From: a virus
Lineage: Duplodnaviria; Caudoviricetes
Direction: 5' to 3' (one strand)
Length of the DNA stretch: 29,602 bases
IMG/VR virus record: IMGVR_UViG_3300023297_000063
Coordinates: 1 to 29,602 of that record
Under the pieces are notes generated by a model. It did no database searches, was not told the DNA's origin, and was given only the letters and a program-made list of their open reading frames with translations. This document shows positions 601-28,717 of this stretch, one piece after another; the first letter of the stretch is position 1; each line of letters begins with the position of its first letter. The position numbers and the translations under genes are program-made.

Positions 601-882
601 TTACTCCTTTGGGAAATCCTTGCGGATTTCTTTAATACAGTGATTCCAACCAGTCATTTCGTCTTCATTGTAAATATTCGGGAACTTGTCCACTTCTTTT
701 GGAATACACTTCTCTATTCTCTCCCTCTCTTTTTTTAGTTCTTGGGAGATAGTTTTAGATATGAAGTCTTTAATTTCGTCGTATCTTGCACTTGTAAAGT
801 TATTGACAAAACCTACCTCGTTTCTGCCATATAAGTCGTCAAAGTCTTTATCAAAGTCTTTCTCCCACTTAGTATTTTTCAT
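601..882 (-). CDS. Hypothetical phage protein (likely start MKNTKW at 882)
   Basis: GAGG SD before ATG 882; C-terminal GWNxCIxEI pattern seen in small phage proteins. Confidence 0.65.
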   Translation of the reverse strand: MKNTKWEKDFDKDFDDLYGRNEVGFVNNFTSARYDEIKDFISKTISQELKKERERIEKCIPKEVDKFPNIYNEDEMTGWNHCIKEIRKDFPKE

Positions 883-1282
883 TGTAAGTTCCTCTCCCAT
901 CTTTAAAAGCTCTAATAGTTTTTGTGTTCCAAAATAAGTTTTGGATAGCTTGTTTCCTTTTCTCTGGTGTTAAATCATATCTTCTGTGGCAGGAACGACA
1001 CATCCTTTGATAGTTCCCTCTGTGCTTCTCGTGCTTTTTCCCAATCTTCAGACACCATTCGAAAGTATTGCTCTTTTGTTCACACTTTGGGTTTTCACAA
1101 TGTTTTGGTTTGCCGTAGTGTGTGTTAAGCCATTGATGTACCGAAGTTCTGTGTGTTGGTTTGTCTTTCCAGTTTGGTGCTTTATCTCCCTTTACCCCCC
1201 TCAGGCTCTGCCAATAACACTCTCTGGAACAGAACTTGTTGGTAGCTAGCTTGGTAGGTTTTCCACATATTTTGCATTTCAT
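869..1282 (-). CDS. HNH-type (Zn-binding) endonuclease with N-terminal Zn finger
   Basis: CxxC...FCSREC; HQWL...KPKHCENPKC...NYQRMCRSCHRRYD. Confidence 0.65.
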   Translation of the reverse strand: MKCKICGKPTKLATNKFCSRECYWQSLRGVKGDKAPNWKDKPTHRTSVHQWLNTHYGKPKHCENPKCEQKSNTFEWCLKIGKKHEKHRGNYQRMCRSCHRRYDLTPEKRKQAIQNLFWNTKTIRAFKDGRGTYNEKY

Positions 1283-1288
1283 ATTACC

Positions 1289-1317
1289 ATTATATATCTA
1301 TGTCTATCAAATGTCAA
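1289..1317 (-). promoter_or_regulatory. Consensus sigma70-type promoter; predicted leaderless transcript
   Basis: TTGACA (1317-1312), 17 nt, TATAAT (1294-1289); ATG at 1282 with no SD. Confidence 0.8.
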
Positions 1318-1335
1318 GCTCCCATTGTTTGTCTG

Positions 1336-1677
1336 TCATATTCTCTCCCATTGCTCTTTCATTAGCTTGTCAACCATAATATAAACATCAGACTTTAACC
1401 CCTCTTTGTTCACCTTGTAGGTGCTGTGCTTGTCTTGGTTCACTTCTAAGATGCGTTCTACATCGCGGAGGAGTTTGTCCTCCCAGTTTTTGGTTGTCAT
1501 TTTGTTTCCTCTTTTAGTTGTTTTGTTGTCTGTCATAATATGTTCCTCTGGTTCGTCTGCTTCTATTTCTTCGTAGTGGAACTGACCGCTAGTATCGCAT
1601 AGGCAACGGTCTTCTACCTTATTTTTACCGAAGTGTGGTTTCCCACAAAGGTTACAGACTTGTACTACTCTTTTCAT
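1336..1677 (-). CDS. Hypothetical protein with N-terminal CxxC; apparently a composite of in-frame gene starts
   Basis: AGGAACATATTATGA at the start and repeated internally at 1533-1547. Confidence 0.55.
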   Translation of the reverse strand: MKRVVQVCNLCGKPHFGKNKVEDRCLCDTSGQFHYEEIEADEPEEHIMTDNKTTKRGNKMTTKNWEDKLLRDVERILEVNQDKHSTYKVNKEGLKSDVYIMVDKLMKEQWERI

Positions 1678-1691
1678 AATATGTTCCTTAA

Positions 1692-2180
1692 TTAAAGTGT
1701 TTCTAAAAACTTCTCTAAGTCTTCGTCTTGCACCATATCATCACGTCCAAACTTACCATCTAAATAACCCTTGTCATACAGCCACTCTGCTATCTTCTCT
1801 GCTTTGGTTTCTTTGGGTTCGATATTGTAAGTCCAAGACTCGCACTGTTTACCGTTAGATTCACATTTTTTGAAACATTCCCCACAAGCGAATTTCTCGT
1901 TTTTATGGTTGTAATGCAAATCTACTCCTGATACGCCACAATAATAACACGATATTGGCTCCCCTTCTTTGTCTTTGGTTTCTTTGGCTAATTTAGTCAT
2001 CTTGCTCTGCTCATCGTTTGATGCCTGAATGGCTTTGTCAACACACTCTTTGAAGGTGTCTGTGAGCATTATGCTCTGGGTGTGTTCCTCTTGGTGCTTG
2101 CTAAAAGCGTCTATCAATTCGTTCAATGTAGATACCATTTGTCCAAAGTCTTCTATAAATGCTCCTGTTATTCTTTTCAT
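1692..2180 (-). CDS. Hypothetical protein with Zn-finger insert; paralog of 2217..2663
   Basis: Shares NEL.D...HQEEH, KETK, KA.KIAE and the terminal ETL. Confidence 0.7.
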   Translation of the reverse strand: MKRITGAFIEDFGQMVSTLNELIDAFSKHQEEHTQSIMLTDTFKECVDKAIQASNDEQSKMTKLAKETKDKEGEPISCYYCGVSGVDLHYNHKNEKFACGECFKKCESNGKQCESWTYNIEPKETKAEKIAEWLYDKGYLDGKFGRDDMVQDEDLEKFLETL

Positions 2181-2216
2181 AACTTTCCTTTTAATTAGGG
2201 AAATACTTGCGTATTT

Positions 2217-2663
2217 CTAAAGTGTTTCTATTACTTCTAAGAACTCCTTAAGCATAGCTCCAAAATGTGGTTCATCTAATTCCATATCCCTATAATCGTG
2301 AGCATAGTCTTTGATTAGCTCTGCTATCTTGTCTGCTTTGGGTTTATACTTCGATGCAAATTCAATACCGCATAACTTGCAATATGGCGATATGTTCAAA
2401 TCAAATTCATGTTTACACTCTTTGGTTTCTTTGGGTTGGTCTGTTCCCCTACCAGATGAAAATATCTTGCCCTCTATTTCTGGTGCGTACACAGTTTTGA
2501 TAGCGTCTAATAGTCCTTCGTGTTCCTCTTGGTGACTGTTAGCGAAGTCAACTAATTCGTTTGTTTTCTCGACAACTCCTCGTAAGACCATATCTTTTGA
2601 TTCAAATGTGTCTTTCATAATCTCCACGGGCTGATAGTCGTCTAGTTTGGTTATCTTTTTCAT
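2217..2663 (-). CDS. Hypothetical protein with Zn-finger insert; paralog of 1692..2180
   Basis: AAGGAG SD; CKHEF...CKLCG; shared blocks with the neighbour. Confidence 0.7.
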   Translation of the reverse strand: MKKITKLDDYQPVEIMKDTFESKDMVLRGVVEKTNELVDFANSHQEEHEGLLDAIKTVYAPEIEGKIFSSGRGTDQPKETKECKHEFDLNISPYCKLCGIEFASKYKPKADKIAELIKDYAHDYRDMELDEPHFGAMLKEFLEVIETL

Positions 2664-2687
2664 ATATCTCCTTGATTAGGGAAATGC

Positions 2688-2801
2688 TTACGCATTTCTA
2701 AATACTTCCTCTATAATTTTATCAACCTCATCACACGCTTTTTTGTCGCCTTCCCAATGCATCAGGAACTCTCGTATTGCTTTTTTTAGTTTCTCTTTCA
2801 T
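2688..2801 (-). CDS. Small hypothetical protein, 37 aa (MKEKLKKAIREFLMHW...), absent from the ORF track
   Basis: AGGAGG SD; TAA stop falls in the loop of the hairpin at 2681-2698. Confidence 0.6.
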   Translation of the reverse strand: MKEKLKKAIREFLMHWEGDKKACDEVDKIIEEVFRNA

Positions 2802-2845
2802 CTTGTCCTCCTAGTTAATTAGGGGAGATTCTTGCGAATCTCTGT

Positions 2846-2996
2846 TAGTTGATTAAGTGGTGTTGGTAAGCGATACTCTGTTGATGTCGGTCACTCTCCG
2901 ACCAGCTCGTTGTGTTTTTTTGGCATCAGGAAGTTAAAACCTGCTTATTACCCATTGGGTCGCTGTACTAGCTTACCAACACCATTCAATCAATTA
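2846..2996 (-). ncRNA. Candidate structured ncRNA with a 26-bp closing stem
   Basis: Inverted repeat 2846-2871 / 2971-2996 (23/26 Watson-Crick); internal stems ACCC/GGGT, CAGG/CCTG, GTCGG/CCGAC; intergenic; strand inferred from context. Confidence 0.55.
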
Positions 2997-3023
2997 GTTT
3001 CTCCCCAGAGGGTAGAGGCAGAG

Positions 3024-3118
3024 TGGTGGAGGCAAGGTTTGACTTGCAGACAATTCACCTTGGAAATTAGGCATTGTTTAATTTTCCTATGTAACGGCTC
3101 ACAGTCCGCCACTCCACC
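3024..3118 (-). ncRNA. tRNA-like RNA or pseudo-tRNA
   Basis: Acceptor GGTGGAG/CTCCACC+A; TG; D-stem GCGG/CCGT; T-arm GCAAG-TCAAAC-CTTGC; no canonical anticodon loop. Confidence 0.55.
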
Positions 3119-3199
3119 ATTCCACCCCTACCCTTCTGTTTGTTGTGGGAGTATTTTAGGGAAATTCTTGCGAATTTCCTACCCTCCTTATTAAGTCTT

Positions 3200-3694
3200 C
3201 TATTCAAATATCTCGTCTACATCTATCTCTTCTTCGTCTACCTGTGAGTCCTGTGCTTCTTCTTTGCTACCAAAGGTTTCTGTTCCTTCGTCTGTAGCAC
3301 CGAATAGCTTCTCTAGGTCTATGTCCGCTTCTTTGATTTTATCTTTTTCTTCAGAAGTTATCTCTGATTTCTTGGGGCTGGGAGTCACTGTGTAATAACT
3401 GCCCTGTTCCTCTGTTCTTGTGATAGTCAAATCATATTGGGTGGGGTCTCCCCAATCTTCTTCATTGGCTAGTTTCTTGACTTCTCTATAAATCATTACT
3501 CCGCCCTTAAAGCCTTTGATTTCCCCGTCTTCTCGGTTGATAACTGTCCACGCAAATCGTTCGTTCGTCTCTCCCTTGTATTCCTCTTGGAAGTGAATCG
3601 GGGCAGACGCTAATCTAATTTTAACTTTATCTCCTTTGCCCGACAATCTTAAATAAGGGCTGTTGCTTTTGGGTTCGTATTCATAGTCTTTCAT
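3200..3694 (-). CDS. Probable phage single-stranded DNA-binding protein
   Basis: WGDPTQYDLTITRT...YTVTP motif; acidic tail ending EEEIDVDEIFE; next to an exonuclease. Confidence 0.6.
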   Translation of the reverse strand: MKDYEYEPKSNSPYLRLSGKGDKVKIRLASAPIHFQEEYKGETNERFAWTVINREDGEIKGFKGGVMIYREVKKLANEEDWGDPTQYDLTITRTEEQGSYYTVTPSPKKSEITSEEKDKIKEADIDLEKLFGATDEGTETFGSKEEAQDSQVDEEEIDVDEIFE

Positions 3695-4370
3695 CTTTCT
3701 CCTTTGCTTTTAATGTTGCCTCTTTACTTGTTAGATTTATATAATCGGGGTAACTTGCATACTTGGCGTTCTTCTGCCATTTGTATCGGGGTTCAAACTC
3801 TGGCACAATACCCGTCTGGAAGGCTTCAGATGCCTCTCTAATGACTTTATCTACGCTTTCTGAGTAATCGGCTGTCTCTTTGACAAAGTGCTCTATGCGG
3901 TAATCGTCTGCCGAAACATAAACTATATGAAATCGGGGTGCTTTCATCGCCATAGCGTAAAAACAGGCTTGTAGGATAACTTGGGGGTCTGCATCTCCTT
4001 GAGTTTCTATTCTTTTGAACTTAGAGTTCTTGACTGATTTAACTTCGTAGGGCTCGTCTTTGAATATGAAATCGACAACTCCGACTGTGTTCTTGTATTC
4101 AACTTCCTTTTGAACATCAGTTATTCTGAGTTTCATCTTTAGAATGTCGATTACTTTCTCTTCTACATCTTTCCCTCTGGCGAATAAGCAGAGAACATAG
4201 TCATCAACTTCGGGAGTTTCTATTCCCATTAAGTGTAAAACTTGCCATTGCAAAGCCCAGCCTAGTCTTGAGGCTGATAGCTTTCCCGAACTTACGTGCT
4301 TCTCTCGTTCTTTGTCGTTGAGTTCACGTATGGTGTCTTTGAATACTTTGTCTAGTGAATGAATAATCAT
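3681..4370 (-). CDS. Cas4-like PD-(D/E)XK exonuclease (likely start MIIHSL at 4370)
   Basis: LSASRLG, RGKDVE, GVVD...YEVKS, QACFY motifs; AGGAG SD before 4370. Confidence 0.75.
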   Translation of the reverse strand: MIIHSLDKVFKDTIRELNDKEREKHVSSGKLSASRLGWALQWQVLHLMGIETPEVDDYVLCLFARGKDVEEKVIDILKMKLRITDVQKEVEYKNTVGVVDFIFKDEPYEVKSVKNSKFKRIETQGDADPQVILQACFYAMAMKAPRFHIVYVSADDYRIEHFVKETADYSESVDKVIREASEAFQTGIVPEFEPRYKWQKNAKYASYPDYINLTSKEATLKAKEKDERL

Positions 4371-4588
4371 TTGTCTCCTTTGGGCAATTCTTGCGAATTG
4401 CTTTGTACAACCCTTACACCTTTTACCGAATCCAAAAACCAAGTTCTCGTCTTGGTAGGAAAGTTGTAGTTTGTATCGAAACGCATTCCTGCCTTTAGTA
4501 GCTCCATTTCTGCTTTGTCCAGGTGTTCCATTTGTTTCTTTGTTCTGTTTTTAAATATTATATCCACATTAACGTTTGCTTTTTTCAT
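4367..4588 (-). CDS. Hypothetical protein
   Basis: GAGG SD; overlaps both neighbours by 4 nt. Confidence 0.6.
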   Translation of the reverse strand: MKKANVNVDIIFKNRTKKQMEHLDKAEMELLKAGMRFDTNYNFPTKTRTWFLDSVKGVRVVQSNSQELPKGDK

Positions 4589-4773
4589 TGTACCGCCTCA
4601 TGTTCTCTCTGCATATCAGCTTGGTCTTCTCGCATAGCGTCATAAGCCATCTCGGCTCTCTCTTCTATTCTGTCTTTGCAATCACCACAGTAAGCTAACT
4701 CATCGTCTCCCCAGATAGCGTCATCTAGTGAGTATTCCTTCTCGCAGTAATTGCATTTGAATGTGTTGTTCAT
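4585..4773 (-). CDS. Small Zn-finger protein
   Basis: CNYC...CGDC; AGGAG SD. Confidence 0.65.
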   Translation of the reverse strand: MNNTFKCNYCEKEYSLDDAIWGDDELAYCGDCKDRIEERAEMAYDAMREDQADMQREHEAVQ

Positions 4774-4937
4774 AGCTCTCCTTTCAATACTTTTACGTCT
4801 TCCTTATTCCAATTATCTCTAAACATATTTGCCACTTCCCTTATAGATATTCCAGGCTCATTTCTGGTATCGTTTATAGCCAACATAAGCATTTCTTTGT
4901 TGTGTTCGTAAACCTCTCGTGGCGTTATTTCATTCAT
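4770..4937 (-). CDS. Small hypothetical protein, 55 aa (MNEITPREVYEH...), absent from the ORF track
   Basis: AAGGAG SD; ATGA overlap with the next gene. Confidence 0.65.
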   Translation of the reverse strand: MNEITPREVYEHNKEMLMLAINDTRNEPGISIREVANMFRDNWNKEDVKVLKGEL

Positions 4938-5050
4938 AATTATCTCCTTTTTAATTCGGTTTAGTTTGTGGCGTTTGCATATAGAGGAGTTTGCAAGTGT
5001 CCTCTATCGAAGTGGGCTTTCAGGCTTTCTCCTAATGTTGCCACCACATC

Positions 5051-5218
5051 TTATAAGTTTTTAACTTTAATTTCTTTTTGGACTTCTTTATCTCTTAAGA
5101 TTATCTCTTCAATCATCTGGGAACGCTTAACATTTAATCTTGGTTGTCGTTTTGCTATTTTTTCTATTACCCTTAATACTTCGGGGTGCATTGTAATGGC
5201 TATTTTTAGTCTTTTCAT
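5051..5218 (-). CDS. Ribbon-helix-helix (CopG/Arc/MetJ-like) DNA-binding protein, 55 aa, absent from the ORF track
   Basis: MKRLKIAITMHPEVLRVIEKIAKRQPRLNVKRSQMIEEII: alternating beta strand, helix, then RSxxIxxxI helix; AGGAG SD; own promoter. Confidence 0.7.
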   Translation of the reverse strand: MKRLKIAITMHPEVLRVIEKIAKRQPRLNVKRSQMIEEIILRDKEVQKEIKVKNL

Positions 5219-5247
5219 TTCATTACTCCTATTATTATTATATATTT

Positions 5248-5276
5248 AGTCTAGCATACCCGTTCTTACTTGTCAA
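5248..5276 (-). promoter_or_regulatory. sigma70-type promoter
   Basis: TTGACA, 17 nt, TAGACT with extended -10 TG. Confidence 0.75.
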
Positions 5277-5281
5277 TACTA

Positions 5282-5617
5282 CTAGAACAGCTTATGTTGT
5301 TTTGGCTTTATAGTATTATGTTTTTGCATAATTGCACAAGCACCTGCGGGATTGGTTGCTACTTCAAACTTATTCTCTGGAATAAACTCTTGCTCTCCGT
5401 GTCCGAAGTTCTGTTTGATTGACTTCTCAAATACAGATATTGGAGCAACGAGATAGACCTTTTCTTCTTGTTCGATTAAGACAACAAAGTCAGCGTCTTT
5501 CTTTATTCGTTGAACGATAGTGTCTTGAAATCCCCAAGCCTTTAACACTCTATGGAAGTGTACAGACCTTTTAACTTTCTTTTGGAATACTCCTTTTTGT
5601 ATTTTTCCCCAAGTCAT
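5282..5617 (-). CDS. Hypothetical phage protein
   Basis: Coupled start; KRSVHF...AWG...GHGEQEFIP. Confidence 0.65.
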   Translation of the reverse strand: MTWGKIQKGVFQKKVKRSVHFHRVLKAWGFQDTIVQRIKKDADFVVLIEQEEKVYLVAPISVFEKSIKQNFGHGEQEFIPENKFEVATNPAGACAIMQKHNTIKPKQHKLF

Positions 5618-5928
5618 TTGCTTCCTTTGTTTCTCTTCTCAAACGCCTCTTCTTTAAGTCTCATCTTTTTCTCTTGTTCGTTCTCTAGCGGGAATGGTCT
5701 GACATTTACAGACCTCCTGTATACATCCGTTAGCCCCAACTCGTCATTGTTTTGTAGTTCTATCTTTCCACTTTTAAGCTTATTAATTACATCTTCTGTG
5801 TCCGCAGTTAAAAAACCAACAACAATTCCACCATCTCTTTCATCTAACATCCAATATGTTGGCGATGATTCATGCTTGGTTTTCCAATCTCTTGAACTAA
5901 TCATTTTTTTTGCCCAAACTTGATACAT
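5614..5928 (-). CDS. Hypothetical protein
   Basis: AAGGAG SD; overlaps the rep gene end. Confidence 0.6.
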   Translation of the reverse strand: MYQVWAKKMISSRDWKTKHESSPTYWMLDERDGGIVVGFLTADTEDVINKLKSGKIELQNNDELGLTDVYRRSVNVRPFPLENEQEKKMRLKEEAFEKRNKGSK

Positions 5929-6568
5929 TGTTCTCCTTGTTTAGTTTGTGTAATCTTAAATATTCTGGTATTTCAACATCTCCTACTTCTATCTTTTGTT
6001 TTTCGTCTGAAAACTCGGTAGCCCTTTTCATCCAATTCTCTAGGAAAGCTTTGTAATTTTTATAACGCTTACCATTCATATTTAACCAATTAATTGCTCT
6101 TTCTATTTCCTCTTCTAAGTGGGTATTTGGGTATTTCTTTTCAAAGTATGTTTTATCTTTGGTGGGTATGGAAACAAGCCATTGTTTCCCATACTCTTCT
6201 TTATTCTTTACTTCTTTACTTCTTGTTAGAGTGTCATCTTGTTGTCTGCTTGTTGTCATCTTGTTGTCATCGTTGTTGTTACCGACCTGTTGATAACTCT
6301 CCCAATTCGATACTATATAGGTACTATATTTGTTGTTACTCCTTAGTGTCATCATTTTGGCTTTTACAAGCCTCATAGAAGCACCATAGGTTGTTGTTGG
6401 CTTCAAACCGCAATGTTCAGCCAACTGAAATCTGCCACCCTCCCAAACTCCTGTTTTTCTATCTACCAACAACAGCAATGTTATAAACACCTTGAATGCG
6501 TTGGTATCTCTTTTCAGGAAATCGTTGTCTATGATTTTGCGGTGAAGTTTCACCCAACCATTTCTCAT
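5897..6568 (-). CDS. Phage replication initiator (replisome-organizer-like); likely start MRNGWVKLHRK at 6568
   Basis: GWVKLHRKI N-terminus, low-complexity T/D/N linker, C-terminal YKNYKAFLENW; AGGAG SD. Confidence 0.8.
   Translation of the reverse strand: MRNGWVKLHRKIIDNDFLKRDTNAFKVFITLLLLVDRKTGVWEGGRFQLAEHCGLKPTTTYGASMRLVKAKMMTLRSNNKYSTYIVSNWESYQQVGNNNDDNKMTTSRQQDDTLTRSKEVKNKEEYGKQWLVSIPTKDKTYFEKKYPNTHLEEEIERAINWLNMNGKRYKNYKAFLENWMKRATEFSDEKQKIEVGDVEIPEYLRLHKLNKENNVSSLGKKND
6232..6280. repeat. Iteron-like repeats inside the initiator gene (candidate origin)
   Basis: TTGTTGTCATC tandem copies at 6250 and 6261, overlapping TGTCATCTTGTTGTC at 6232, and TGTCATC at about 6347. Confidence 0.55.
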
Positions 6569-6585
6569 TAGTTCTCCTAATAAAA

Positions 6586-6668
6586 TACCCCAGAGAAATC
6601 GGTTGAGGATTGGCTCTGGGGTAAACATATTTAGCTAAACGTGTTTTCATAAAAAATCCCCAACCGAT
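6586..6668 (-). promoter_or_regulatory. Structured 5' leader of the rep gene (attenuator or pseudoknot candidate)
   Basis: 10-bp hairpin TACCCCAGAG/CTCTGGGGTA followed by TTTTATT; loop complementary to 6654-6668. Confidence 0.6.
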
Positions 6669-6675
6669 TGTCTAT

Positions 6676-6704
6676 ATTCTATCTGCTCTCTTTTCTTTTG
6701 TCAA
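6676..6704 (-). promoter_or_regulatory. sigma70-type promoter for the replication operon
   Basis: TTGACA, 17 nt, TAGAAT. Confidence 0.75.
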
Positions 6705-6724
6705 TAGAATATACTGTTGATAAC

Positions 6725-7075
6725 CTAGTCACCACAATAAAATCCTAAGTCGTTACCCCAATTATCCCAACCTAACCAAGTGCAACCATCTCCGCCATCG
6801 CTACCATCGCTACCAGATTGACCTGCCGAACCTGTGTCGCCTTTTGAGCCAGTAGCACCTGTTTGACCTACTGCTCCTGCTTCTCCCGCTACGCCTGTTG
6901 CACCCGTATCACCTGTAAAGCCTCTTAACTCCTCCTTGTGGTCTTGGACATAACTCTCTACATTAGCGGGAATACTAACCACAGCATAAACCGCTATCGC
7001 CATTGCTATAACCGCAACACTCATAATCGCTATCTCTTTTCCGTTCTCTTTCACTCCTTTAATAAACCTTTTCAT
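6725..7075 (-). CDS. Membrane-anchored collagen-like protein
   Basis: N-terminal hydrophobic helix; about 15 Gly-X-Y triplets; short Cys-flanked Trp-rich tip. Confidence 0.75.
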   Translation of the reverse strand: MKRFIKGVKENGKEIAIMSVAVIAMAIAVYAVVSIPANVESYVQDHKEELRGFTGDTGATGVAGEAGAVGQTGATGSKGDTGSAGQSGSDGSDGGDGCTWLGWDNWGNDLGFYCGD

Positions 7076-7083
7076 TTTGCTCC

Positions 7084-7581
7084 CTAATTTATAAACTTTA
7101 GATATTCTTTATTTTTAAACATAGTCCAATGATTAAAGCCCGATTTCGTATCTCTCAACAGTTTAGCATATCTTATATTTTCCTCTGGTATCTGCATTTG
7201 TTCTATGGTTATTCCTCGTGTTGGCATAATTCTTATTTGGCATAGCCCGACACTCATTCCATACTCTCCACCACCTTGCCAAAATGTCAGATGTCCGTCT
7301 CCAATTGCCATTGTGTCCTCGCCTCTGTTCTCTGCTTTACAAATTGCCCTCATTGTATTTGCTTCATCGCCAAAGTATTTCACAAACAAGTCTTGTTCTG
7401 GCTCTGGGTTGATAAATGACAACTCCTCGAACTTTATCGCCGGGGGTTCTTCTTCAATTACAAATTCGTCAGAATTTGCTAAATCTCTATTCCTCATATC
7501 ATTCATAGTCTCTGCCACTCCCCCACAAAAAGAGGCAACAAGTGGAATAATACAGATTTTAATTATTAATTTAGGAATCAT
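7084..7581 (-). CDS. Lysozyme-like / lytic transglycosylase with N-terminal signal or anchor
   Basis: AICKAEN (catalytic Glu position), SVGLCQI (GLxQI), PEENIRYA, GFNHW. Confidence 0.7.
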   Translation of the reverse strand: MIPKLIIKICIIPLVASFCGGVAETMNDMRNRDLANSDEFVIEEEPPAIKFEELSFINPEPEQDLFVKYFGDEANTMRAICKAENRGEDTMAIGDGHLTFWQGGGEYGMSVGLCQIRIMPTRGITIEQMQIPEENIRYAKLLRDTKSGFNHWTMFKNKEYLKFIN

Positions 7582-7784
7582 TTTGTTTCTTTATTAGTTA
7601 TTTGATATGCGTTTTTATAATCTTTAACATTAAAATCTTCAATATCATAAACATTGCTACCGATTAAAACATCAACCTGCCATTCTTCAAGTTTTATACT
7701 ATTGTTCGCAAACAATAAACGAACTGCTCCCGTCTTGTCTTGGAAAACTTCTATTTGATTTTTGAATTTATCTTTTAATTTCAT
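7578..7784 (-). CDS. Hypothetical protein
   Basis: GAGGAG SD; coupled overlaps. Confidence 0.6.
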   Translation of the reverse strand: MKLKDKFKNQIEVFQDKTGAVRLLFANNSIKLEEWQVDVLIGSNVYDIEDFNVKDYKNAYQITNKETK

Positions 7785-7990
7785 TTTTCTCCTCTTTTAA
7801 ATTCTGTTAAAAATAATTGATACTCTGTTTTACACTTTGGACAAATCAAAAGAAACAACTCTGGCTTTTTTATGTTCTCAAACGTATTCTCTGGGCTGAT
7901 GTTTATATGCTCTTGGCAATCTGATTTAGGACATTTCAGATATGAAAATGATGGTTTCATATTTATTGGTAACCATTTCTTTCTACTCAT
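7781..7990 (-). CDS. Small Zn-ribbon protein
   Basis: CPKSDC...CPKC; AAGGAGG SD. Confidence 0.65.
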   Translation of the reverse strand: MSRKKWLPINMKPSFSYLKCPKSDCQEHINISPENTFENIKKPELFLLICPKCKTEYQLFLTEFKRGEK

Positions 7991-8160
7991 TCTACCTCCT
8001 TACCAGAATCGAGCACAACACCTGACAGCTGTCGAAGAACGGTTTCGTTTTCAGAGTTGGCATATCTCATTAATGCGTCAAGGTTTCTTTGAGTGATTGC
8101 CCACCCCTTCCCGTCAATGATGAACATTTTATTTTCCCCGTCTAGTTTTATTCTCTTCAT
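7987..8160 (-). CDS. Small hypothetical protein, 57 aa (MKRIKLDGENK...), absent from the ORF track
   Basis: GAGG SD; ATGA overlap with the next gene. Confidence 0.6.
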   Translation of the reverse strand: MKRIKLDGENKMFIIDGKGWAITQRNLDALMRYANSENETVLRQLSGVVLDSGKEVE

Positions 8161-8192
8161 TTTTCCTCTCTTTCTAAGAATGCGTGAGCATT

Positions 8193-8426: not shown

Positions 8427-8458
8427 ATGAAGCGTGATATATTAAATTGTTAAAGGGC

Positions 8459-8487: not shown

Positions 8488-8538
8488 TTAATTGTTAACC
8501 AGTTGTCCAGCACCTGCCACTTTCTGTGTCCTACGGAC

Positions 8539-21467: not shown

Positions 21468-22042
21468 TATTCGGTTCTGGAGATATGGCTACAGCCATAA
21501 ACAATAGAATAGGTTCAACAATGATTCCAGAAAAGAAGTGTGACATAAGGAACATTAGGAGTGTCAAAAAGGTTGTTGAGAAATATGACCCAGATGTTGT
21601 TATGAATTGTGCTGGTATTTTAGAACCAGAGAACTGGAAGAGAACGATAGACACGAACCTAACTGGTGCGTATAACATTTCAGAGGCTTCCAAAGGTAGG
21701 AAGATGATATTTATAGCTTCAACAGCAGGGTTACACGGAAAGAAAGGAGACCTATGTTATTGTGCATCCAAAGCTGGAGTTATATCTATAGTACAATCAC
21801 TGGCTTCAGAAGGAGAGTATGTATTCTGCATATCACCAGCAAGGATAGACTCTTCGATGAGAAACAAGACACACCCTTATGAAGATAAATCTACTAGATT
21901 AGATATGAACGAAATTGTAGATGTAGTAGAGGACATTTTGAAAGGCGAATATGAATCAGGAGACAACATAATAGTCAAGAAGGGCTGGGACATAATTGTA
22001 AACAAAGGAGAACCTTGGAAAAAGTTATTCAACCTAAAATAG
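21461..22042 (+). CDS. Short-chain dehydrogenase/reductase
   Basis: IFGSGDMA, NCAG, NLTG, IAS, YCASK. Confidence 0.88.
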   Translation: MLIFGSGDMATAINNRIGSTMIPEKKCDIRNIRSVKKVVEKYDPDVVMNCAGILEPENWKRTIDTNLTGAYNISEASKGRKMIFIASTAGLHGKKGDLCYCASKAGVISIVQSLASEGEYVFCISPARIDSSMRNKTHPYEDKSTRLDMNEIVDVVEDILKGEYESGDNIIVKKGWDIIVNKGEPWKKLFNLK

Positions 22043-22758
22043 CATACATCTATCACATTATAGGTACGCTTTCGATTGACCACATAAGTCATAGTATCGA
22101 GAGTATGAAGCGACAAGATATACACTGGGATACCTTGATTATTTATAATGGCGGAGATTTTGACAACAAACGCATATTAAACAGGATGGACACCAGTATG
22201 TTCGACCACGTTGAGTTTTACCCATACGATACAGGATTGGTTAAAGGTGCTGTCGCTGACTGGAATGAGCAGTTCAAGAACATAAAAGGCTTTGACTATT
22301 ACTTCGTTCACAAGGCTGACTTCTATCTAGCAGATGGAGCGTGTGAGAGGTTTGAGCAGATGATTGGAGGAACTGCCAATCCATTCTTTGTAGGTTTTAA
22401 GAAGTTTGATATGCGAGAGGATGTAGACATCAAACAGGTTAGAGAAATGGCTAAAAGGTCTAGCTTTGAGGCTAATATGGACACAGAGAAGACACTAGCC
22501 TACTCTCCCGAGAAAGAACCCAAGTGGGATGGGGTTATGCACGCATATAACGAACTAGCCAGAAGACAATTTGAAGCTCCAAACGAAGAGAAGAACATGG
22601 AGGTAGGAGCCTGTCAGTGTTTCCAAATGCTATCAGACAAGATAGGAAAAGAGAATATGCTAGTGGATGATGGAGTTTATGCTATGCATATGTTTCACGA
22701 GGTAACAAACCTAAAAGGGAAAACAGCAAACAAACTAATTAACGGAGAAAGGTACTAA
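22015..22758 (+). CDS. Hypothetical protein, possible divergent GT-A-fold enzyme
   Basis: Inside the sugar cluster; LIIYNG, YFVHKADFY, HMFH resemble degenerate GT-A motifs. Confidence 0.5.
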   Translation: MEKVIQPKIAYIYHIIGTLSIDHISHSIESMKRQDIHWDTLIIYNGGDFDNKRILNRMDTSMFDHVEFYPYDTGLVKGAVADWNEQFKNIKGFDYYFVHKADFYLADGACERFEQMIGGTANPFFVGFKKFDMREDVDIKQVREMAKRSSFEANMDTEKTLAYSPEKEPKWDGVMHAYNELARRQFEAPNEEKNMEVGACQCFQMLSDKIGKENMLVDDGVYAMHMFHEVTNLKGKTANKLINGERY

Positions 22759-22955
22759 TGATTACACAAAAACAATTACAGAAGCTGGTGGACAAGTGGG
22801 ACGTTTCTTACAAACCATCGTTTCGCAACCCTACCTGTGCTGACTGTGGAAAGACAATGTATTTTAGAATGTGGCACGTGTTTCTGAAAGAGTTTGGCAA
22901 TAAGAGAGAGATTCACCTATGTAAAAGATGTGGGCGGAAATGGGGGATAAAGTGA
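22758..22955 (+). CDS. Small Zn-finger protein
   Basis: CADC...HLCKRC; coupled start. Confidence 0.65.
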   Translation: MITQKQLQKLVDKWDVSYKPSFRNPTCADCGKTMYFRMWHVFLKEFGNKREIHLCKRCGRKWGIK

Positions 22956-23593
22956 AACCCTTAATAGTCATTCCGTACTTCAACGGAAAGGAGTTCCTAC
23001 CTAATCTACTAGCGTCTATTCCAAAAGACAAGTACAGAGTTTTGGTTGTGGATACAGGCTCTACCGACCCAGATAGTGTTGAACTTCTGAATAATATAGA
23101 TGTTCTAGTCGATAAGACAGACGTAGCTGGATTCGGATTAGGGGGATATATACTAGCCTACGATAAGTACCCATCAGACGAGTATTTCTTTATGCACGAT
23201 TCAATGGTTGTTAAAGACCCAGATTTTATAGAGAAGTTCAGAGAGAAAGGCGATGTGGTTGGATGGTTGAAGTTTCCATTCAGCGAACAGCACGATGATT
23301 ATATAAACTACCTTACTGCGGATTATGGAGATTATTCGGACGCACCAGAGTTTGGAATCTTTGGCCCGATATTCTACGCCAAGAAAGAAGCACTAGACGC
23401 CGTGAGAGAGCTTGGTTATTTCAAAGAATATCCGACAGACAAACAGCACTTATGTGCACAGGAAAGAGGAATGGCAATAGCGTTTAAGAGAGCAGGTTAT
23501 GATATGAAGTTTATAGAAACATATGATTATGAAAGACTAGATAATCGGAGGGACTATGAGTTATTCGACAAGATTAGACCACACCGAACTTAG
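22952..23593 (+). CDS. GT2-like glycosyltransferase (likely GTG start)
   Basis: IVIPYFN, VVDTGSTD, FFMHDS. Confidence 0.75.
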   Translation: MKPLIVIPYFNGKEFLPNLLASIPKDKYRVLVVDTGSTDPDSVELLNNIDVLVDKTDVAGFGLGGYILAYDKYPSDEYFFMHDSMVVKDPDFIEKFREKGDVVGWLKFPFSEQHDDYINYLTADYGDYSDAPEFGIFGPIFYAKKEALDAVRELGYFKEYPTDKQHLCAQERGMAIAFKRAGYDMKFIETYDYERLDNRRDYELFDKIRPHRT

Positions 23594-24164
23594 TATTGTT
23601 ATACCGTTGTACATTCATAAGATTGAACTGTATCCGATAATACAGAGATGTTTCGACAGTATAAAAGAACACTACCCAAATGCAGAGTTGGTAGTAATTG
23701 ATGATGGTTCACCGCTAGAACACGACTTTGAGGTAACCTACAGGAAGCCTAAGAACAGCGGGTTTACTAACACCGTTAATGAGGGATTGCACAGAGCCAC
23801 GAATGACATCATCGTTGTGATGAATGATGACATCACTCTGAAAGCTGGAGACCTAGATAGATTTTACGAGATAAACGCTGTGGGGATTTACTCACCTAAA
23901 ACAGAGGATGAGGGAGATGGAGACAAGTTCGGTTCTATATGGGGAATGAACAGAGAAACATATAAGAGGATGGGAAACCTAGACGAGAAGTTCCCACATT
24001 ATTTCTCAGACACAGAGTACTACAAGAAAGCCAAGAGATTAGAAATACCAATAACAAAGTGGTATGACATAGTTATAACTCACGAATCAGGAGCTACATA
24101 CGAGAAATTAGACAATCGTGAGGAGCTATACGATTCAGATAAGGCTAAGTATGATGTCAGTTGA
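23556..24164 (+). CDS. GT2 glycosyltransferase
   Basis: SIVIP, IDDGS, NSGF...VNEG, MNDD, G.LDE.F..YFSD.EY. Confidence 0.88.
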   Translation: MSYSTRLDHTELSIVIPLYIHKIELYPIIQRCFDSIKEHYPNAELVVIDDGSPLEHDFEVTYRKPKNSGFTNTVNEGLHRATNDIIVVMNDDITLKAGDLDRFYEINAVGIYSPKTEDEGDGDKFGSIWGMNRETYKRMGNLDEKFPHYFSDTEYYKKAKRLEIPITKWYDIVITHESGATYEKLDNREELYDSDKAKYDVS

Positions 24165-25011
24165 AATATGGACAGAAGTTTTGCCTTATGTTTATTGGTG
24201 GAAGCCAGATGACTATATGGGTGGAACGCCAGAGTATGTAGTCAACACAGCAGAGAACCTAGCCAAGTTGGGTTATGAGGTAATAGTATATTATGACAGC
24301 GAACCAACCGAATTGAATGGGGTTAATTACCTTCCGAGGAATATGTATTCAGGAGATGATGTATTATTATCTTGTAATGGCAGAGCACCTTTTCTTGCAA
24401 AGAGAAATATATCTTGGACATCTAAGGTTGACCAAACACAGGATATGTATTCGGACTTCGATGAACGCATAGTTTTGTCTAAATACCATCAAGGGCTGTT
24501 TGGGGAGGACTCTAAGATAATTCCATTGGCTGCAAACCCAATAAAACCAAAGAAAAAGAAGTTTCAAGCGATTTATACGTCATCACCCGACAGAGGGCTA
24601 GACTTTCTGTTGAAAATGTGGTCAAAGACATATCAAGACACAGGTTTGGTGCTAAAAACCTCTTACAACGCATCACGGAGCGTCTCAGGTGTGGAAAATC
24701 TAGGTAAACTGACTGATTCAGAGATGGATGACCTATATGCAGAGTCAAAGTACTGGTTACACCCCTGTCAGGGAATTGAGTTGTTTTGTATTTCGGGGTA
24801 TAAAGCTCAGATGGCTGGATGCGTTCCGATATATATTCCAAATATGGCGTTAGCAGAAACAGTCAAGTTTGGAAGGAAAACAGACCTAGTTAATTTCAGG
24901 GTTGATGTAAAAGAAGAAATAAAGAATCCAACTGAAATTCCAGACATTAGCTACGATAACTGGATGGACGTTACAATTACTCTTGACAATATAATTAAAA
25001 ATGATTATTGA
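24151..25011 (+). CDS. GT4-like glycosyltransferase; paralog of the fusion's C-terminal domain
   Basis: MGGTPE, IVLSKYH, SSPDRGL, ELFCISGYKAQMAG. Confidence 0.82.
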   Translation: MMSVEIWTEVLPYVYWWKPDDYMGGTPEYVVNTAENLAKLGYEVIVYYDSEPTELNGVNYLPRNMYSGDDVLLSCNGRAPFLAKRNISWTSKVDQTQDMYSDFDERIVLSKYHQGLFGEDSKIIPLAANPIKPKKKKFQAIYTSSPDRGLDFLLKMWSKTYQDTGLVLKTSYNASRSVSGVENLGKLTDSEMDDLYAESKYWLHPCQGIELFCISGYKAQMAGCVPIYIPNMALAETVKFGRKTDLVNFRVDVKEEIKNPTEIPDISYDNWMDVTITLDNIIKNDY

Positions 25012-25019
25012 GGTACTTA

Positions 25020-25397
25020 ATGAAGGAATCAGAACTACAAACAATAGCAGAGGAACAAGCATCTCCAGAAAAAGAGGCGGTGTTTCCAGAGAACGCAGTA
25101 AAGGAAGATTATTCATTTACTAAGCTATTACCGTTTTTTAACATAGAAGGCGAAGAGGCTGGAGAGCCTCAAGCGAAAGAAAGGCTCAATTTCATATGGG
25201 ACTTCTTTAAAGGAGAGAGTAAAGACGTTGCAGATGTCCTTTGGAAAATAAATGAGATTGAACACAAGATAGGAGCACCAGAGTTTGGGACTAGAAGATA
25301 CGAAAAACTCTACCGCTACCTGATATTACTTGATGACAAGAAAACAATAGACAGAGAATTAACTGCCTATGAGAACACAGTGGAGAAACTCAAGTAA
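25020..25397 (+). CDS. Hypothetical protein
   Basis: GAGG SD before ATG 25020. Confidence 0.7.
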   Translation: MKESELQTIAEEQASPEKEAVFPENAVKEDYSFTKLLPFFNIEGEEAGEPQAKERLNFIWDFFKGESKDVADVLWKINEIEHKIGAPEFGTRRYEKLYRYLILLDDKKTIDRELTAYENTVEKLK

Positions 25398-25466
25398 TGT
25401 TTGTAGGGGCTAGTTGTCCTCCTTTCTAGCCCCTAACCAACATAATGAGGCGACCAGAAAGGCCAT

Positions 25467-26108
25467 ATGGCTGTAACGTTGCAAACCGTTCTGGAAGATT
25501 TGAACTATATTCTAGGAGACACCAGTGTCCCTAGTACTGGTATTGATAACCAGGAAAGGTTTATTAACTTAACTAACGAGAAGATTTACGATTACCACGA
25601 CTGGAGATGGGCTACAAACTCTACAAGTTATGTATTCTCTGGCTCGACACAAACCTTGCCAACTGATTTTAATAATCTTGTAGAAGTAAGAGAAGAGATT
25701 ACTGGAGCAGACAACGATAACATTTACGATATCGTGAATGAGACAGACATAGACAGGAGTACGTCAGAATATATAGCTTATGTTTCTGGAAACGAAGAAG
25801 ATGGGTTTACTTTGAGTGTAAACCAGACAGACAATCCAACACTGAAAACTACTCTGAAGATTAAGGCTTCAGATATGTCAGCCACCACAGATGAGACAAA
25901 ATGTCCACGTTCTATGCCTATCGCCAGAGGAGCTGTTGTTCTGATGCAAGAAGCAGAAGACCCATACAGAGACACTACTCAGGCTTTAAGGAAATACCAA
26001 GACGAACTAGACGACTTGATTAGACTAGATGTTCGTACTAAACCAAGTAACAAGTTCTTTACCAAGAGTATGCGAAGAGGAGGAAGGGCTATTGGAGAAC
26101 CTCGATGA
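25467..26108 (+). CDS. Head-tail adaptor / tail tubular protein A-like
   Basis: FIN.....I....DW.W, TLPTDF motifs; precedes the nozzle gene. Confidence 0.72.
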   Translation: MAVTLQTVLEDLNYILGDTSVPSTGIDNQERFINLTNEKIYDYHDWRWATNSTSYVFSGSTQTLPTDFNNLVEVREEITGADNDNIYDIVNETDIDRSTSEYIAYVSGNEEDGFTLSVNQTDNPTLKTTLKIKASDMSATTDETKCPRSMPIARGAVVLMQEAEDPYRDTTQALRKYQDELDDLIRLDVRTKPSNKFFTKSMRRGGRAIGEPR

Positions 26109-27691
26109 GTAACATAAAGATGAGAAAATCTGCTATCGGAGGCTCTAATCCACCAGAGTGGGTACTGAACAAGTTCAGACGTGGTTTGAATACTCTGGTT
26201 TCTGACACTAGAGTAAATGTCGAAGAAACACCAAGAGCATTGAATGTAAACTATACAGAAGATGGACTTCCGACTAAACGTGGTGGGACTGCTTTACATA
26301 GAACGGAGATTGGAAGTCGCATACGAGGACTAGCTTCTTATTATAAAGATGACGGCACAGACTATATGATAGCTGCTGCTAATGGGACACTATATTACGA
26401 TAATGGCAGTGCGTGGGCACACATAACTTGTGCGTCTGGTGCAACCGTCTCACCCAATATCGACTACAACTTCGTACAGGCGAGGGATTATTTATACGCC
26501 CATGACGGACAGGGATTGAAGAGGATGGAAGGAACTACAATGACAGCTCAGACCAACGGCGTATCTGGTGATTTCGGAATCTACTGGAAAGGCAGACACG
26601 TTGTAGCTGGGAACGAGTCTTATCCATCACGAGTGTTTATATCTAGGAACAATGATGCAGGGCATTTTATAACCACAGGAACAGACACTTCTGCTGAGTG
26701 GTTTGATGTACAACCGTCTGATGGAGACAAAGTTAAAAGCGTGGCTACATTCTACGATAACTTAGTAATATTCAAAGAACGGTCTATCCACAAAGCAGTG
26801 CCTTCAAACTCTACTGGTGATTTCGTATCAAGCGTGCAGTTAATCAACAACGACATAGGTTGCGTTGCTCACAGGACTGTAGATACTGTAGACAACGATG
26901 TGTTCTTCTTGTCAAGGAAAGGTGTGTACGTTCTAGGAAACGAGCCTAACTTCTTTGATACGATTAGAACTAATGAAGTATCAGCTAGAGTTCACCCAGA
27001 GATAGAGGGAATAACCCCAGCCAACTTCGGACTAACATCTGCGATGTACCACAATTATAAATACTATATGGCATACCCATTCGGTGGGACTACATACAAC
27101 AACAGGGTTTTAGTATATGACACACGATATGGAGCTTGGTCACTACACACAGGATATAACCCTAACTGCTTTAACACCTTTATAGACTCTACTGGAACAG
27201 AAGCTCTTTACTGCGGAGACGATAACGCTGGTAAAGTCTTAAAGATGGAAAGCGGGACTGCTGACTCTGGTAGTTCGATTAACTCAAACTTTTACTCACC
27301 AAACATAGACTTAGAGGCACCTGACATTAAAAAGTTCTTTATGGATGCGACAATCCAGACAAGAAACACACAAGCCTCTTTAGATGTCGATGTCTATATA
27401 GACGGTGAAGTATATAAGTCTGCTACCTTCAATATCGGTACTACAGGAAGTTCGAGTGGTTTAGGCACAAAAGTGTTAGCAGAGGACTACCTAGCTTTGT
27501 CTGGTGGTTCTACCATAACTACAGAAGTGACTTCAAACATATTAAAGAGATTTAGACTTAAACATAGAGGAAAGAATATACAAATTAAAGTATCAAACGA
27601 CTCAACAACAGACTCGTGGACACTGATGAGCTTACGAGGGTCATACAGACCTTTGTCCCACTTCGTTTTTGACTCGGACGACAAAATATAA
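26105..27691 (+). CDS. Tail nozzle / stabilization protein (P22 gp10-like beta-propeller)
   Basis: F..GLN, NV......L.KRGG, LVIFKERSI, IGCVA, FFLS.KGVY, VLVYD. Confidence 0.8.
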   Translation: MSNIKMRKSAIGGSNPPEWVLNKFRRGLNTLVSDTRVNVEETPRALNVNYTEDGLPTKRGGTALHRTEIGSRIRGLASYYKDDGTDYMIAAANGTLYYDNGSAWAHITCASGATVSPNIDYNFVQARDYLYAHDGQGLKRMEGTTMTAQTNGVSGDFGIYWKGRHVVAGNESYPSRVFISRNNDAGHFITTGTDTSAEWFDVQPSDGDKVKSVATFYDNLVIFKERSIHKAVPSNSTGDFVSSVQLINNDIGCVAHRTVDTVDNDVFFLSRKGVYVLGNEPNFFDTIRTNEVSARVHPEIEGITPANFGLTSAMYHNYKYYMAYPFGGTTYNNRVLVYDTRYGAWSLHTGYNPNCFNTFIDSTGTEALYCGDDNAGKVLKMESGTADSGSSINSNFYSPNIDLEAPDIKKFFMDATIQTRNTQASLDVDVYIDGEVYKSATFNIGTTGSSSGLGTKVLAEDYLALSGGSTITTEVTSNILKRFRLKHRGKNIQIKVSNDSTTDSWTLMSLRGSYRPLSHFVFDSDDKI

Positions 27692-27703
27692 GAAAGGAAT
27701 TAT

Positions 27704-28660
27704 ATGGCTTTTTCAACAGATGACGCAACGCTTAAAACAATCGACCAACAGGACTTTTATGAAACTACACTTAAAACTGCTGTCACAGATGCAACAGATA
27801 CTAATATATATCTGACAGCACTACCTACGCCGACTGAAGGCTTTTTGACAATAGAACCGACCTCAACCTCAAAGCGAGAGGTAATCTTCTATACTTCGTT
27901 GGGTGCTGATTATGTGACCTGTCCTTCTGCCGCTGGTGGAAGAGGAGTTTCTGGAACAGCACAGGGACACGCTGTAAGTTCTGTAGTAAGATTGAGTGAC
28001 GCAAAACAGTATTGGACACTTTTAAGAGACAGACTCTTAGACGTTCAGACAGGATGGATAAACGCAGACGAGACTTGGACTTGTGGAGCAGATGATGTAA
28101 TCACAGTTCCGACCAACGCTACAGTTAAATACTCAGTAGGAGATAAGATTTTCTTACAAGATGATGGCGGAGATTTATACGGAAACGTAACAGCGGTCGC
28201 AGCCACATCACTAACGCTAGCTTCAAACGATGACTATACGCTAGCTAGCGGCTCAACAATTACAGAACCTAAATACTCAAAGGCTGTTTCACCAGTAGGA
28301 TTCCCTACTTGGTTTGATTATACACCGACACTAGCTGGTAATGTGTCAATGTCATATACCACAACTACTGTTGATTTGGCTATGTTTATGGTAGTTGGTA
28401 CAGCGGTAACTCTAATAATTCATCATCACGGAACAGTAGGTGGGACACCCAACACTAGTCTTACTGCAACTTTACCAGTAGCTTGTGCTGATGCTTTGAC
28501 TTATACTGCTTGTAATATATTAGACAATGGAGTTACTGCTCTTGGTTTCGCTATAACAAATGATACTGGAGATACCTTAGATGGCAGAGTAGCAGGAGGT
28601 GGAGTGTGGACAGCTGGAACCGCCTATGTAAGAGCACAAATAACTTATAAGATAGTATAA
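27704..28660 (+). CDS. Putative tail fibre protein
   Basis: Thr/Gly-rich, beta-rich; RGVSGTA..H, W..YTPTL, LPVA motifs; position after the nozzle. Confidence 0.65.
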   Translation: MAFSTDDATLKTIDQQDFYETTLKTAVTDATDTNIYLTALPTPTEGFLTIEPTSTSKREVIFYTSLGADYVTCPSAAGGRGVSGTAQGHAVSSVVRLSDAKQYWTLLRDRLLDVQTGWINADETWTCGADDVITVPTNATVKYSVGDKIFLQDDGGDLYGNVTAVAATSLTLASNDDYTLASGSTITEPKYSKAVSPVGFPTWFDYTPTLAGNVSMSYTTTTVDLAMFMVVGTAVTLIIHHHGTVGGTPNTSLTATLPVACADALTYTACNILDNGVTALGFAITNDTGDTLDGRVAGGGVWTAGTAYVRAQITYKIV

Positions 28661-28717
28661 AAATTCGTAAGAATTTTACATATAAATAATAACAAAGAAG
28701 CGACAGAAAGGAATATA

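Follow-up and report, generated by a model that had tools for sequence, protein, structure and literature searches.

A covarying hairpin repeated at gene junctions of a salt-lake phage, tentatively read as a REP-like single-stranded DNA element

Positions 1 to 29,602 of the IMG/VR record IMGVR_UViG_3300023297_000063 (Duplodnaviria; Caudoviricetes), hereafter the window, carry a short hairpin that recurs, with compensated stem changes, at the junctions between genes. The window comes from a complete phage record, G001, which is 42,115 bp long and has direct terminal repeats, and the sequencing runs containing the phage DNA are salt-lake metagenomes. Scanning both strands, we found 11 perfect 7-bp hairpins closed by a C-G pair in the window and 12 in the complete phage (the twelfth at G001:31570, outside the window). 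Pattern scans of viral contigs added three more phages with the element, G008, G009 and G010, each with four copies (12 copies together), and look-alike repeats are present in many copies in two bacterial chromosomes. We favour, with somewhat less than even confidence, the view that the element is a single-stranded DNA hairpin resembling repetitive extragenic palindromes (REPs), by which a putative, probably host enzyme copies or exchanges gene-start cassettes.

The original prediction, made from the letters of the window, had listed ten GNRA-capped hairpins. The coordinates and sequences of all ten are correct (six on the minus strand, four on the plus); the count itself was low, with an eleventh copy (7461-7478, whose loop GTCA is not GNRA) missed and the twelfth outside the window. 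Shuffled sequence does not approach this frequency: ten perfect 7-bp C-GNRA-G hairpins were counted against a mean of 0.01 and a maximum of 1 in 100 block-wise dinucleotide shuffles, and all 7-bp hairpins with a 4-nt loop numbered 15 in the window against 1.9 in dinucleotide shuffles. Beyond the eleven copies, the both-strand scan of the window gave no further hairpin with the same core.

The element is a palindrome of 18-19 bases with a fixed AAT-N-C / G-N-ATT core and a loop that starts with G. Its consensus reads, on the 5' side, A, three variable bases (mostly GAA) and A-T-N-C, then the loop GYAA and, on the 3' side, G-N'-A-T, the complement of the three variable bases, and C or A. Loops seen in the phages are GCAA, GTAA, GTGA, GTCA, GTCAA and GCAC, the spacer length being 4 to 5. 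The base before the stem is A in 24/24 copies (the copy at 3161 counted with its eighth pair) and the base after it is C or A; in line with the prediction, the C-G closing pair is invariant and CYAA follows the stem within 0-2 nt in 8 of the ten copies. Stems in the window hold 1-3 G-C pairs of 7, short of the G+C-rich stem of a terminator, and the 8 nt after the stem hold 0-4 T in 24/24 copies, with no U-tract, bearing out the claim that these are not intrinsic terminators. The comparison with Rfam that the prediction had proposed gave no match of any Rfam 15 covariance model over any copy; a length of 18 nt may be too little for such a model to score.

Covariation points to a folded strand. 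Across the 24 copies of the four phages, 167/168 stem pairs are Watson-Crick and none is a G-T wobble; one of the four G010 copies has a terminal mismatch. When 23 copies were aligned (the 24th, a perfect stem, stands outside the alignment), 160/161 pairs were standard and 30 cells had changed on both sides and 0 on one side. This level of covariation was reached in 0/500 shuffles, and slid pairings gave 17-57%. All four pair types occur at stem position 6 of the ten listed copies, as had been claimed. From the 160/161 standard pairs and 30 two-sided changes it follows that a folded single strand is either selected or actively homogenised. The proposal of a phage-wide single-stranded signal is supported as regards a selected hairpin and too strong as regards its reach, with 20 kb free of copies and the core also present in bacterial chromosomes.

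Predicted RNA stems of the same phages (six stems) contain 16 G-U in 197 pairs, and the antisense copies of the hairpin keep perfect stems, one of them inside a gene. Hairpins with C-G-closed GNA or GNNA loops are very stable DNA mini-hairpins (PMC13037366), and the d(GCGNAGC)/d(GCGNNAGC) mini-hairpins have the C-G closing pair and G-first loops of 3-4 nt in common with the phage element. That series includes the N4 promoter hairpin and the G4/ssiA priming sites, with GCAA and GTAA among its stable loops (PMC13037366). All phage loops start with G and fit the series, which argues for DNA.

Most window copies are located at the boundary between two consecutive genes. On the minus strand, the copy at 613-630 (loop GCAA) lies in the last codons of open reading frame (ORF) 601-900, with a Shine-Dalgarno sequence (SD) 3 nt and an ATG (599) 13 nt downstream. 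At 2200-2217 (GCAA) the first base of the stem is also part of the upstream stop codon and an ATG (2180) follows after 19 nt, while at 2681-2698 the loop GTAA holds the stop of a 37-codon ORF, 17 nt before an ATG (2663). The copy at 2825-2842 (GCAA) comes after a structured non-coding stretch and 23 nt before an ATG (2801); that at 3161-3178 (GCAA), which extends to 8 bp and has no SD, lies between a gene resembling single-stranded DNA-binding protein (SSB) and a strongly folding non-coding stretch, which it precedes (z = -7.6); and that at 4384-4401 (GCAA) lies in the last codons of ORF 4367-4588, the ATG (4370) of a Cas4-like exonuclease following 13 nt downstream. On the plus strand, the eleventh copy (7461-7478, GTCA) is antisense within ORF 7084-7581 (minus strand; family D14), and the copy at 8177-8194 (GTGA) is antisense at the junction of the leftward ORFs 8193-8426 and 7987-8160. 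Those at 8643-8660 and 8876-8893 (both GTAA) stand 7 nt before the SD-less start (8668) of a 59-aa ORF and 8 nt before the SD-less start of terS (8902), respectively, and at 28660-28677 (GTAA) the stem shares its first base with the stop codon of ORF 27704-28660 and the next start is ~40 nt downstream.

Altogether, 8/11 window copies are followed on the same strand by a start codon no more than 41 nt away, and an SD, 3-30 nt downstream of the hairpin where present, separates the two in six of those eight (it is absent for 8668 and terS 8902). The prediction had placed the hairpins at translation starts; this describes the eight, of which two have SD-less starts, and does not describe copy 3161 with its structured non-coding neighbour. 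In 8/23 copies the stop codon of the preceding gene runs into the base of the stem, in 3/23 it falls in the loop, and 3/23 copies encode the final codons of the preceding gene. Since four of the 24 copies are antisense and three precede non-coding RNAs, the label of a translation-start element is too narrow. Nor does orientation track the transcription arm, as had been stated: the change falls between 4401 and 7461, an interval that contains the iteron-like repeats of the initiator gene, and not at the divergence of transcription (~8430-8640), so that 2/11 window copies (7461 and 8177) are antisense to leftward genes. No copy occurs across the 20 kb of structural genes (8893-28660).

The related phages retain individual copies in place, so positional conservation, on which the prediction had staked itself, is present. 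In G008 the orthologues of 8643 and 8876 have the loop GCAA and a swapped pair 6, and that of 8876 likewise stands 8 nt before terS. Two other G008 copies, with loops GTCAA and GCAC, are opposite in strand to its one complete leftward ORF, the second lying near the contig end in an uncertain context; the antisense pentaloop copy and window copy 8177 are at similar distances from the rightward promoter (269 vs 264 nt). G009 keeps identical copies of 613 and 28660, the 613 orthologue with a different downstream gene, and two G009 copies precede long-stem non-coding elements. Protein overlap between G001 and G010 is tiny (five matches at E up to 0.002, two of them below 1e-5, plus an HNH ORF at ~39%), and because the two share almost no proteins, a common phage-encoded reader is not evident.

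The element was absent from relatives found with the Cas4-like exonuclease (30-46% identity) and from those found with the capsid protein (31-69%), as well as from G003, which shares the structural module; searches with TerL and terS found, apart from near-identical records, only G008. Among 106 viral loci, none contained the AAT-core hairpin twice, and 78 metagenome loci (400 kb) gave just three hairpins, unrelated to the element. A model scan of 92 loci (1.41 Mb) gave two matches, one in a relative of G010 and one in G011; the G011 match, which has the sole G-T pair observed, falls in frame within a long ORF and was set aside as a probable chance hit. Single matches in L473 (coding) and L457 were also treated as chance.

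Several signs suggest exchange between copies. Copies 8643 and 8876 have one common core in the window and another in G008, the outer two pairs being position-specific, which conversion between copies explains more parsimoniously than parallel triple changes do. The dinucleotides flanking the hairpin tend to repeat (TA..TA in 12, AA..AA in 4, mixed in 3; Fisher p = 0.017). A paralogous junction without a hairpin (1678-1705, minus strand), an empty or decayed site, aligns to junction 2200 with one 22-nt gap; an alignment of the ~1692 junction to 2681 as a decayed copy scores higher (37.8 vs 31.0 for 2200). In contigs of runs X2, X8 and X11 the 2681 cassette runs straight into the start of gene 2180, with 483 nt left out, and other contigs link gene starts to the 2200 cassette, with sides of 22-35 nt in each case. 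In G009 an additional gene sits immediately behind the 613 orthologue; in G010 a cassette made of a gene end and the hairpin is duplicated, and half a copy is also present. Among the functions that the prediction had offered, a recombination or gene-shuffling site draws the most support, from the contig joints, the hairpin-free junction and the G026 cassettes described below.

Of note, positions 1336-2663 of the window (minus strand) are an array of paralogous small genes with common internal segments and ends, and mosaic versions of this array are found in G002 and in contigs of several runs.

Look-alike repeats in bacterial chromosomes came from a scan of genome contigs with a 613-type 20-mer as query (19 of 64 parts covered). 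At least 127 chromosomal loci were recovered, 124 of them titled Clostridia, Clostridiales or Eubacteriales among the matches listed. The clostridial loci are back-to-back hairpin doublets bounded by 7-mer tandem repeats and lie between genes, 18 convergent, 24 tandem and 6 divergent (n=48); their loops (n=131) are GCAA (83), GTAA (15), GTCA (11), GAA (8), GCA (7) and GGA (3), with no G-T pair. A rumen clostridial genome (G016) alone has 99 core matches, against one asymmetric match each in 3/300 other genomes of its phylum. Within the G016 genus, the hairpin stands beside a four-helix-bundle (PF05635) gene in 2/7 clostridial loci. At L548, inverted 7-mer repeats delimit an element that lies at an operon junction, between genes that we take to be pyrF and pyrE, and within this element the hairpin comes after the stop codon. 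In addition, clostridial prophages (L316, L317, L344) have the doublet hairpin inserted at several capsid-operon junctions, once with a GTAG-type REP pair nested inside the doublet.

A second chromosome, G026 (1.9 Mb), has 20 AAATCC-N3-7-GGATTT sites vs 0 for the reversed control. The genome has eleven hairpin-SD-ATG cassettes, all 11 in the sense direction and in exactly the order seen in the phage, which precede, among others, rplK, rplS, upp, serA and genes for an epimerase, a HAD hydrolase and DUF3006. Five further sites retain the right arm plus the SD, the left arm being damaged or lost in four. The two family genomes of G026 have no hairpin cassette, their rplK, rplS and DUF3006 starts being free of the hairpin, and thirty wider relatives gave six matches, all asymmetric. 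On this comparison, the G026 pattern looks like that of a small repeat copied into junctions in one lineage and then decaying. A common origin of the phage and chromosomal hairpins is a lead, the search pattern having come from one phage copy. Beside these cassettes, GTAG-type palindromes often adjoin the hairpin-SD unit in G026 (L497, L509, L518, L521), and four-helix-bundle matches number 15 in G026 vs 2 and 3 in its family genomes.

For comparison with known systems, we took REP/REPIN sequences and their RAYT (TnpA-REP) HUH nucleases as reference for membership (PMC6006769). REPs are multicopy, mainly intergenic hairpins with a fully paired stem of 7-20 bp and a loop of 2-5 nt, and the present element, a short, multicopy and mostly extragenic palindrome with a fully paired 7-bp stem and a 3-5-nt loop, agrees with this; lineage-specific expansion and, in the clostridial look-alikes, inverted doublets add to the likeness. 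The GTAG/GTGG that stands 0-2 nt 5' of a REP stem (PMC6006769) is found at only 1/24 phage copies (3161), and the phage arms (GAAA, CAAA, AGAA, AAAA) lack the three or more G/C expected in the first four basal stem bases. No cognate Y1 HUH nuclease flanked by the repeat was found in the G001 ORFs or in the chromosomal loci, where genomes are incomplete. Unlike REPs, the phage stems covary among copies, have an AT-rich base and are usually tied to a downstream SD.

The second system of interest is that of the promoter early stem-loop (PeSL) cassettes of the T4-like phages RB49 and phi1, in which a repeated junction stem-loop is followed by SD and start, and crossovers shuffle small accessory genes (PMC2839356). 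Like these, the cassettes of 6/11 window copies end on the 3' side with SD and start codon; unlike them, the phage cassette has no sigma70 promoter and no polyG/polyC terminator stem, and is just 18-26 nt long with a strict length and sequence core. The start-associated sequences of Cluster K mycobacteriophages (SAS, an asymmetric 13-mer holding the SD, and its extended partner ESAS, imperfect 17-mers with variable spacers) occur in 10-20 oriented copies at some gene starts, with a rare opposite-strand copy (PMC3203893). They resemble the element in placement only; the phage element is a perfect covarying 7-bp hairpin with the SD downstream or absent. An integron attC site was dropped on the wrong order of core sites, an RNase P minihelix on a 3' CCA in a minority of copies, and a CRISPR-repeat mimic on the lack of an Rfam repeat match and of a regular array among the 127 loci; a Helitron end and tetraloop-receptor docking were also considered and dropped. 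In the openly accessible literature covered, we found no description of this hairpin element. By analogy, it appears most like REP/REPIN and PeSL in its working, yet it fails their defining features.

Taken together, these results suggest the following scheme. The hairpin would fold as a single-stranded DNA mini-hairpin at a gene junction and be recognised there by a putative, probably host-encoded nuclease or recombinase, and it would be copied or exchanged together with the downstream ribosome-binding site. The sense orientation would be favoured since the cassette carries or abuts an SD, and in the phage, small accessory genes and module starts would be swapped by crossover and conversion at the copies. 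As the hairpin has multiplied before genes in two unrelated chromosomes, it is likely a DNA-level copying or swapping signal and not a phage-specific RNA switch. A bolder version, which we hold to be rather unlikely, is that undescribed mobile cassettes of 18-26 bases (a DNA mini-hairpin plus a ribosome-binding site) are common to phages and chromosomes, that a putative enzyme, possibly linked to repeat-flanked four-helix-bundle elements, pastes them into operon junctions (even nusG-rplK and trmD-rplS), and that the phage keeps them as a programmable gene-swapping site.

A number of observations weigh against the DNA scheme. No enzyme for the hairpin was identified among the scanned G001 ORFs or the chromosomal loci; the hairpin accompanies none of the Y1-transposase loci (0/10 clostridial and 0/1 in G026, in incomplete genomes) and none of the nuclease or bundle loci of the G026 family (0/12). 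Stem position 6 is nearly fixed in the chromosomal repeats, unlike in the phage family, and their likeness to the phage hairpin may be coincidental. The contig joints at cassettes may stem from related phages, and longer shared gene ends could drive such crossovers without the hairpin. The copies are related by descent, so that p-values overstate, and template switching can give perfect pairing whatever the function; because it can perfect any palindrome and the copies are not independent, neither the RNA nor the DNA set of observations is decisive. Finally, all 11/11 G026 cassettes and 20/24 phage copies are on the transcribed strand, the latter with 18 GYAA and 2 GUCAA loops, and loops other than GYAA are found in 4/4 antisense vs 2/20 sense copies (p = 0.0014, or 0.007 with duplicates collapsed), which suits a role as RNA.

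These last observations in the phages are what an mRNA signal would predict. On this model, an RNA-binding protein or endoribonuclease of the host would recognise the GNRA-type loop and the stem between cistrons and thereby cleave or stabilise the message or control translation of the unit downstream, and we regard this as a real possibility, if one well below even. The overlap of the upstream stop with the stem base, the retention of orthologous copies before terS and after the tail gene, and a local pairing probability of at least 0.97 in 19/23 contexts agree with it, as do the GNRA-like pentaloops bound by protein in P22 boxB (GACAA) and in a CRISPR RNA (PMC12550061). Against it stand the absence of G-U among 168 pairs, the perfect antisense stems and the dominance of GAA triloops in G026 (6/11 cassettes). 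Moreover, SD genes, SD-less genes and non-coding RNAs all lie downstream, with no common translational logic, and a cut on the 3' side of copies 613 and 4384 would separate the upstream ORF from its stop codon. Predicted start accessibility with and without the hairpin did not differ (8 vs 26 starts, p = 0.50, with a single start placed one base off); with copies preceding non-coding RNAs and SD-less starts, the pure translation enhancer that the prediction had entertained is a poor fit. The mRNA and DNA models are not exclusive, because the copies before terS and after the tail gene may be co-opted.

Transcription start a few bases downstream of an N4-like hairpin or cruciform promoter is quite unlikely. 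The flank polarity of the copies is consistent (24/24), four plus-strand copies point to terS, 8876 follows a terminator-like site, and copies precede non-coding RNAs and SD-less starts, all of which would suit a promoter. Five strong sigma70-like promoters are present elsewhere in the phage, however, and 0/32 promoter-like sites in 1-10500 overlap a hairpin copy. No RNA polymerase or sigma factor was found in the scanned ORFs, the largest unannotated one (1056 aa) resembling LPD38 polyvalent proteins. In the N4/G4 comparison, too, neither phage RNA polymerase nor primase was found, the G-first loop is on the non-template strand, and the copies are dispersed at junctions.

Very unlikely, in our estimate, is a boxB-like antitermination site loaded repeatedly along operons. 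As in lambdoid boxB, a short stem carries a GNRA or GNRA-like pentaloop on the transcript (20/20 sense copies are GYAA or GUCAA, the latter resembling the P22 pentaloop GACAA), and copy 8643 lies between a rightward sigma70-like promoter (8459-8487, plus strand) and an intrinsic-terminator-like hairpin with a T-tract (8837-8863, plus strand, between copies 8643 and 8876, as read from the sequence). The promoter faces a leftward one at 8567-8539, both are found again in G008, and G008 has a different hairpin plus a T-rich tract at the place of 8837-8863, so that this copy has the same setting there. Only 8643 lies between promoter and first terminator, and the suggestion of boxB-like antitermination therefore survives for this copy and for no other: unlike the promoter-proximal boxB pairs, there are twelve copies, mostly far from promoters, with 8876 past the terminator and others antisense. 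G001 and G010 have no common candidate N-like protein save an HNH ORF, and no family match to an N-like partner was obtained among the scanned ORFs, N proteins being too short and varied to be excluded in this way.

It is highly improbable that the hairpin is a signal for priming or for the primosome on the lagging-strand template, the origin lying in the initiator gene. The interval of the orientation switch, 4401-7461, includes the iteron-like 11-bp repeats of the DnaD-like gene, 7/12 G001 copies have CTA after the stem, and mini-hairpins occur at the G4 and ssiA priming sites (PMC13037366); set against this are copy-free gaps of 20 and 12 kb and, in G009 (a fragment with one-way genes), a 28660 orthologue that runs with the local genes despite its presumed place past the replication midpoint. 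A double-stranded operator for a dimeric repressor, for which the conserved AAT-N-C half-sites, equally functional antisense copies and a small ribbon-helix-helix-like ORF (5051-5218, judged by eye, with no family hit) might speak, is scarcely credible, because an operator does not explain the symmetric change of 30/30 changed pairing cells; the spacer also varies from 4 to 5 and no copy overlaps a sigma70 promoter. Each of the promoter, boxB, priming and operator models either fails a defining test or accounts for few copies. The interpretation in the original prediction is partly supported, and its observation is confirmed.

The right arm of G001 encodes terminase, portal, an SU10-type capsid, glycosyltransferases and tail proteins, and the left arm a DnaD-like initiator, the Cas4-like exonuclease, the SSB-like protein and many small ORFs without an assigned role. 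Neither integrase, HUH/Y1 transposase, RNA polymerase, sigma factor nor four-helix-bundle protein was found among the 51 window and 19 further G001 ORFs; the 59-aa ORF (8668) belongs to no named family and was not found in G009 or G010. Inside the initiator gene, three 11-bp-spaced repeats are followed by a purine-rich tract (6200-6350), likely a replication origin of the lambda O type. A weaker rightward promoter site (~6698) overlaps a leftward promoter at 6704. A glycosyltransferase with an intein and a LAGLIDADG domain, followed by a sugar-modification gene cluster, occupies 16836-25397, between the capsid and tail genes.

Non-coding elements are a further feature of these phages. The window has two at 2848-3135 (minus strand), each a long closing stem with internal hairpins and no Rfam hit, and segment 3031-3112 of this region reappears with other flanks in contigs of several runs. 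Long-stem elements at L070 13900-13860 and 11570-11540, L300 1350-1380, 2750-2830 and 3060-3150, and L302 3005-3240 are complementary to the leader of a promoter-driven HNH operon; presumably, by analogy, they exert C4/CI-like antisense control, common to G001, G009 and perhaps G010. A short ORF with a six-base repeat encoding Ser/Arg/Gly/Trp runs (L070 14010-14174, minus strand; L300 1134-1227) differs in copy number between G001 and G009, and G009 has a tRNA gene at L300 3161-3232.

If the hairpin does act as DNA, a palindrome of fewer than 20 bases would be a portable junction signal across phages and unrelated bacteria. It would offer a concrete substrate for the swapping of accessory genes and for new ribosome-binding sites inside core operons, as well as a first handle on repeat-flanked four-helix-bundle genes. 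If it acts as RNA, it would be a new intercistronic signal. On either reading, the 24 covarying copies define the bases and pairs to mutate.

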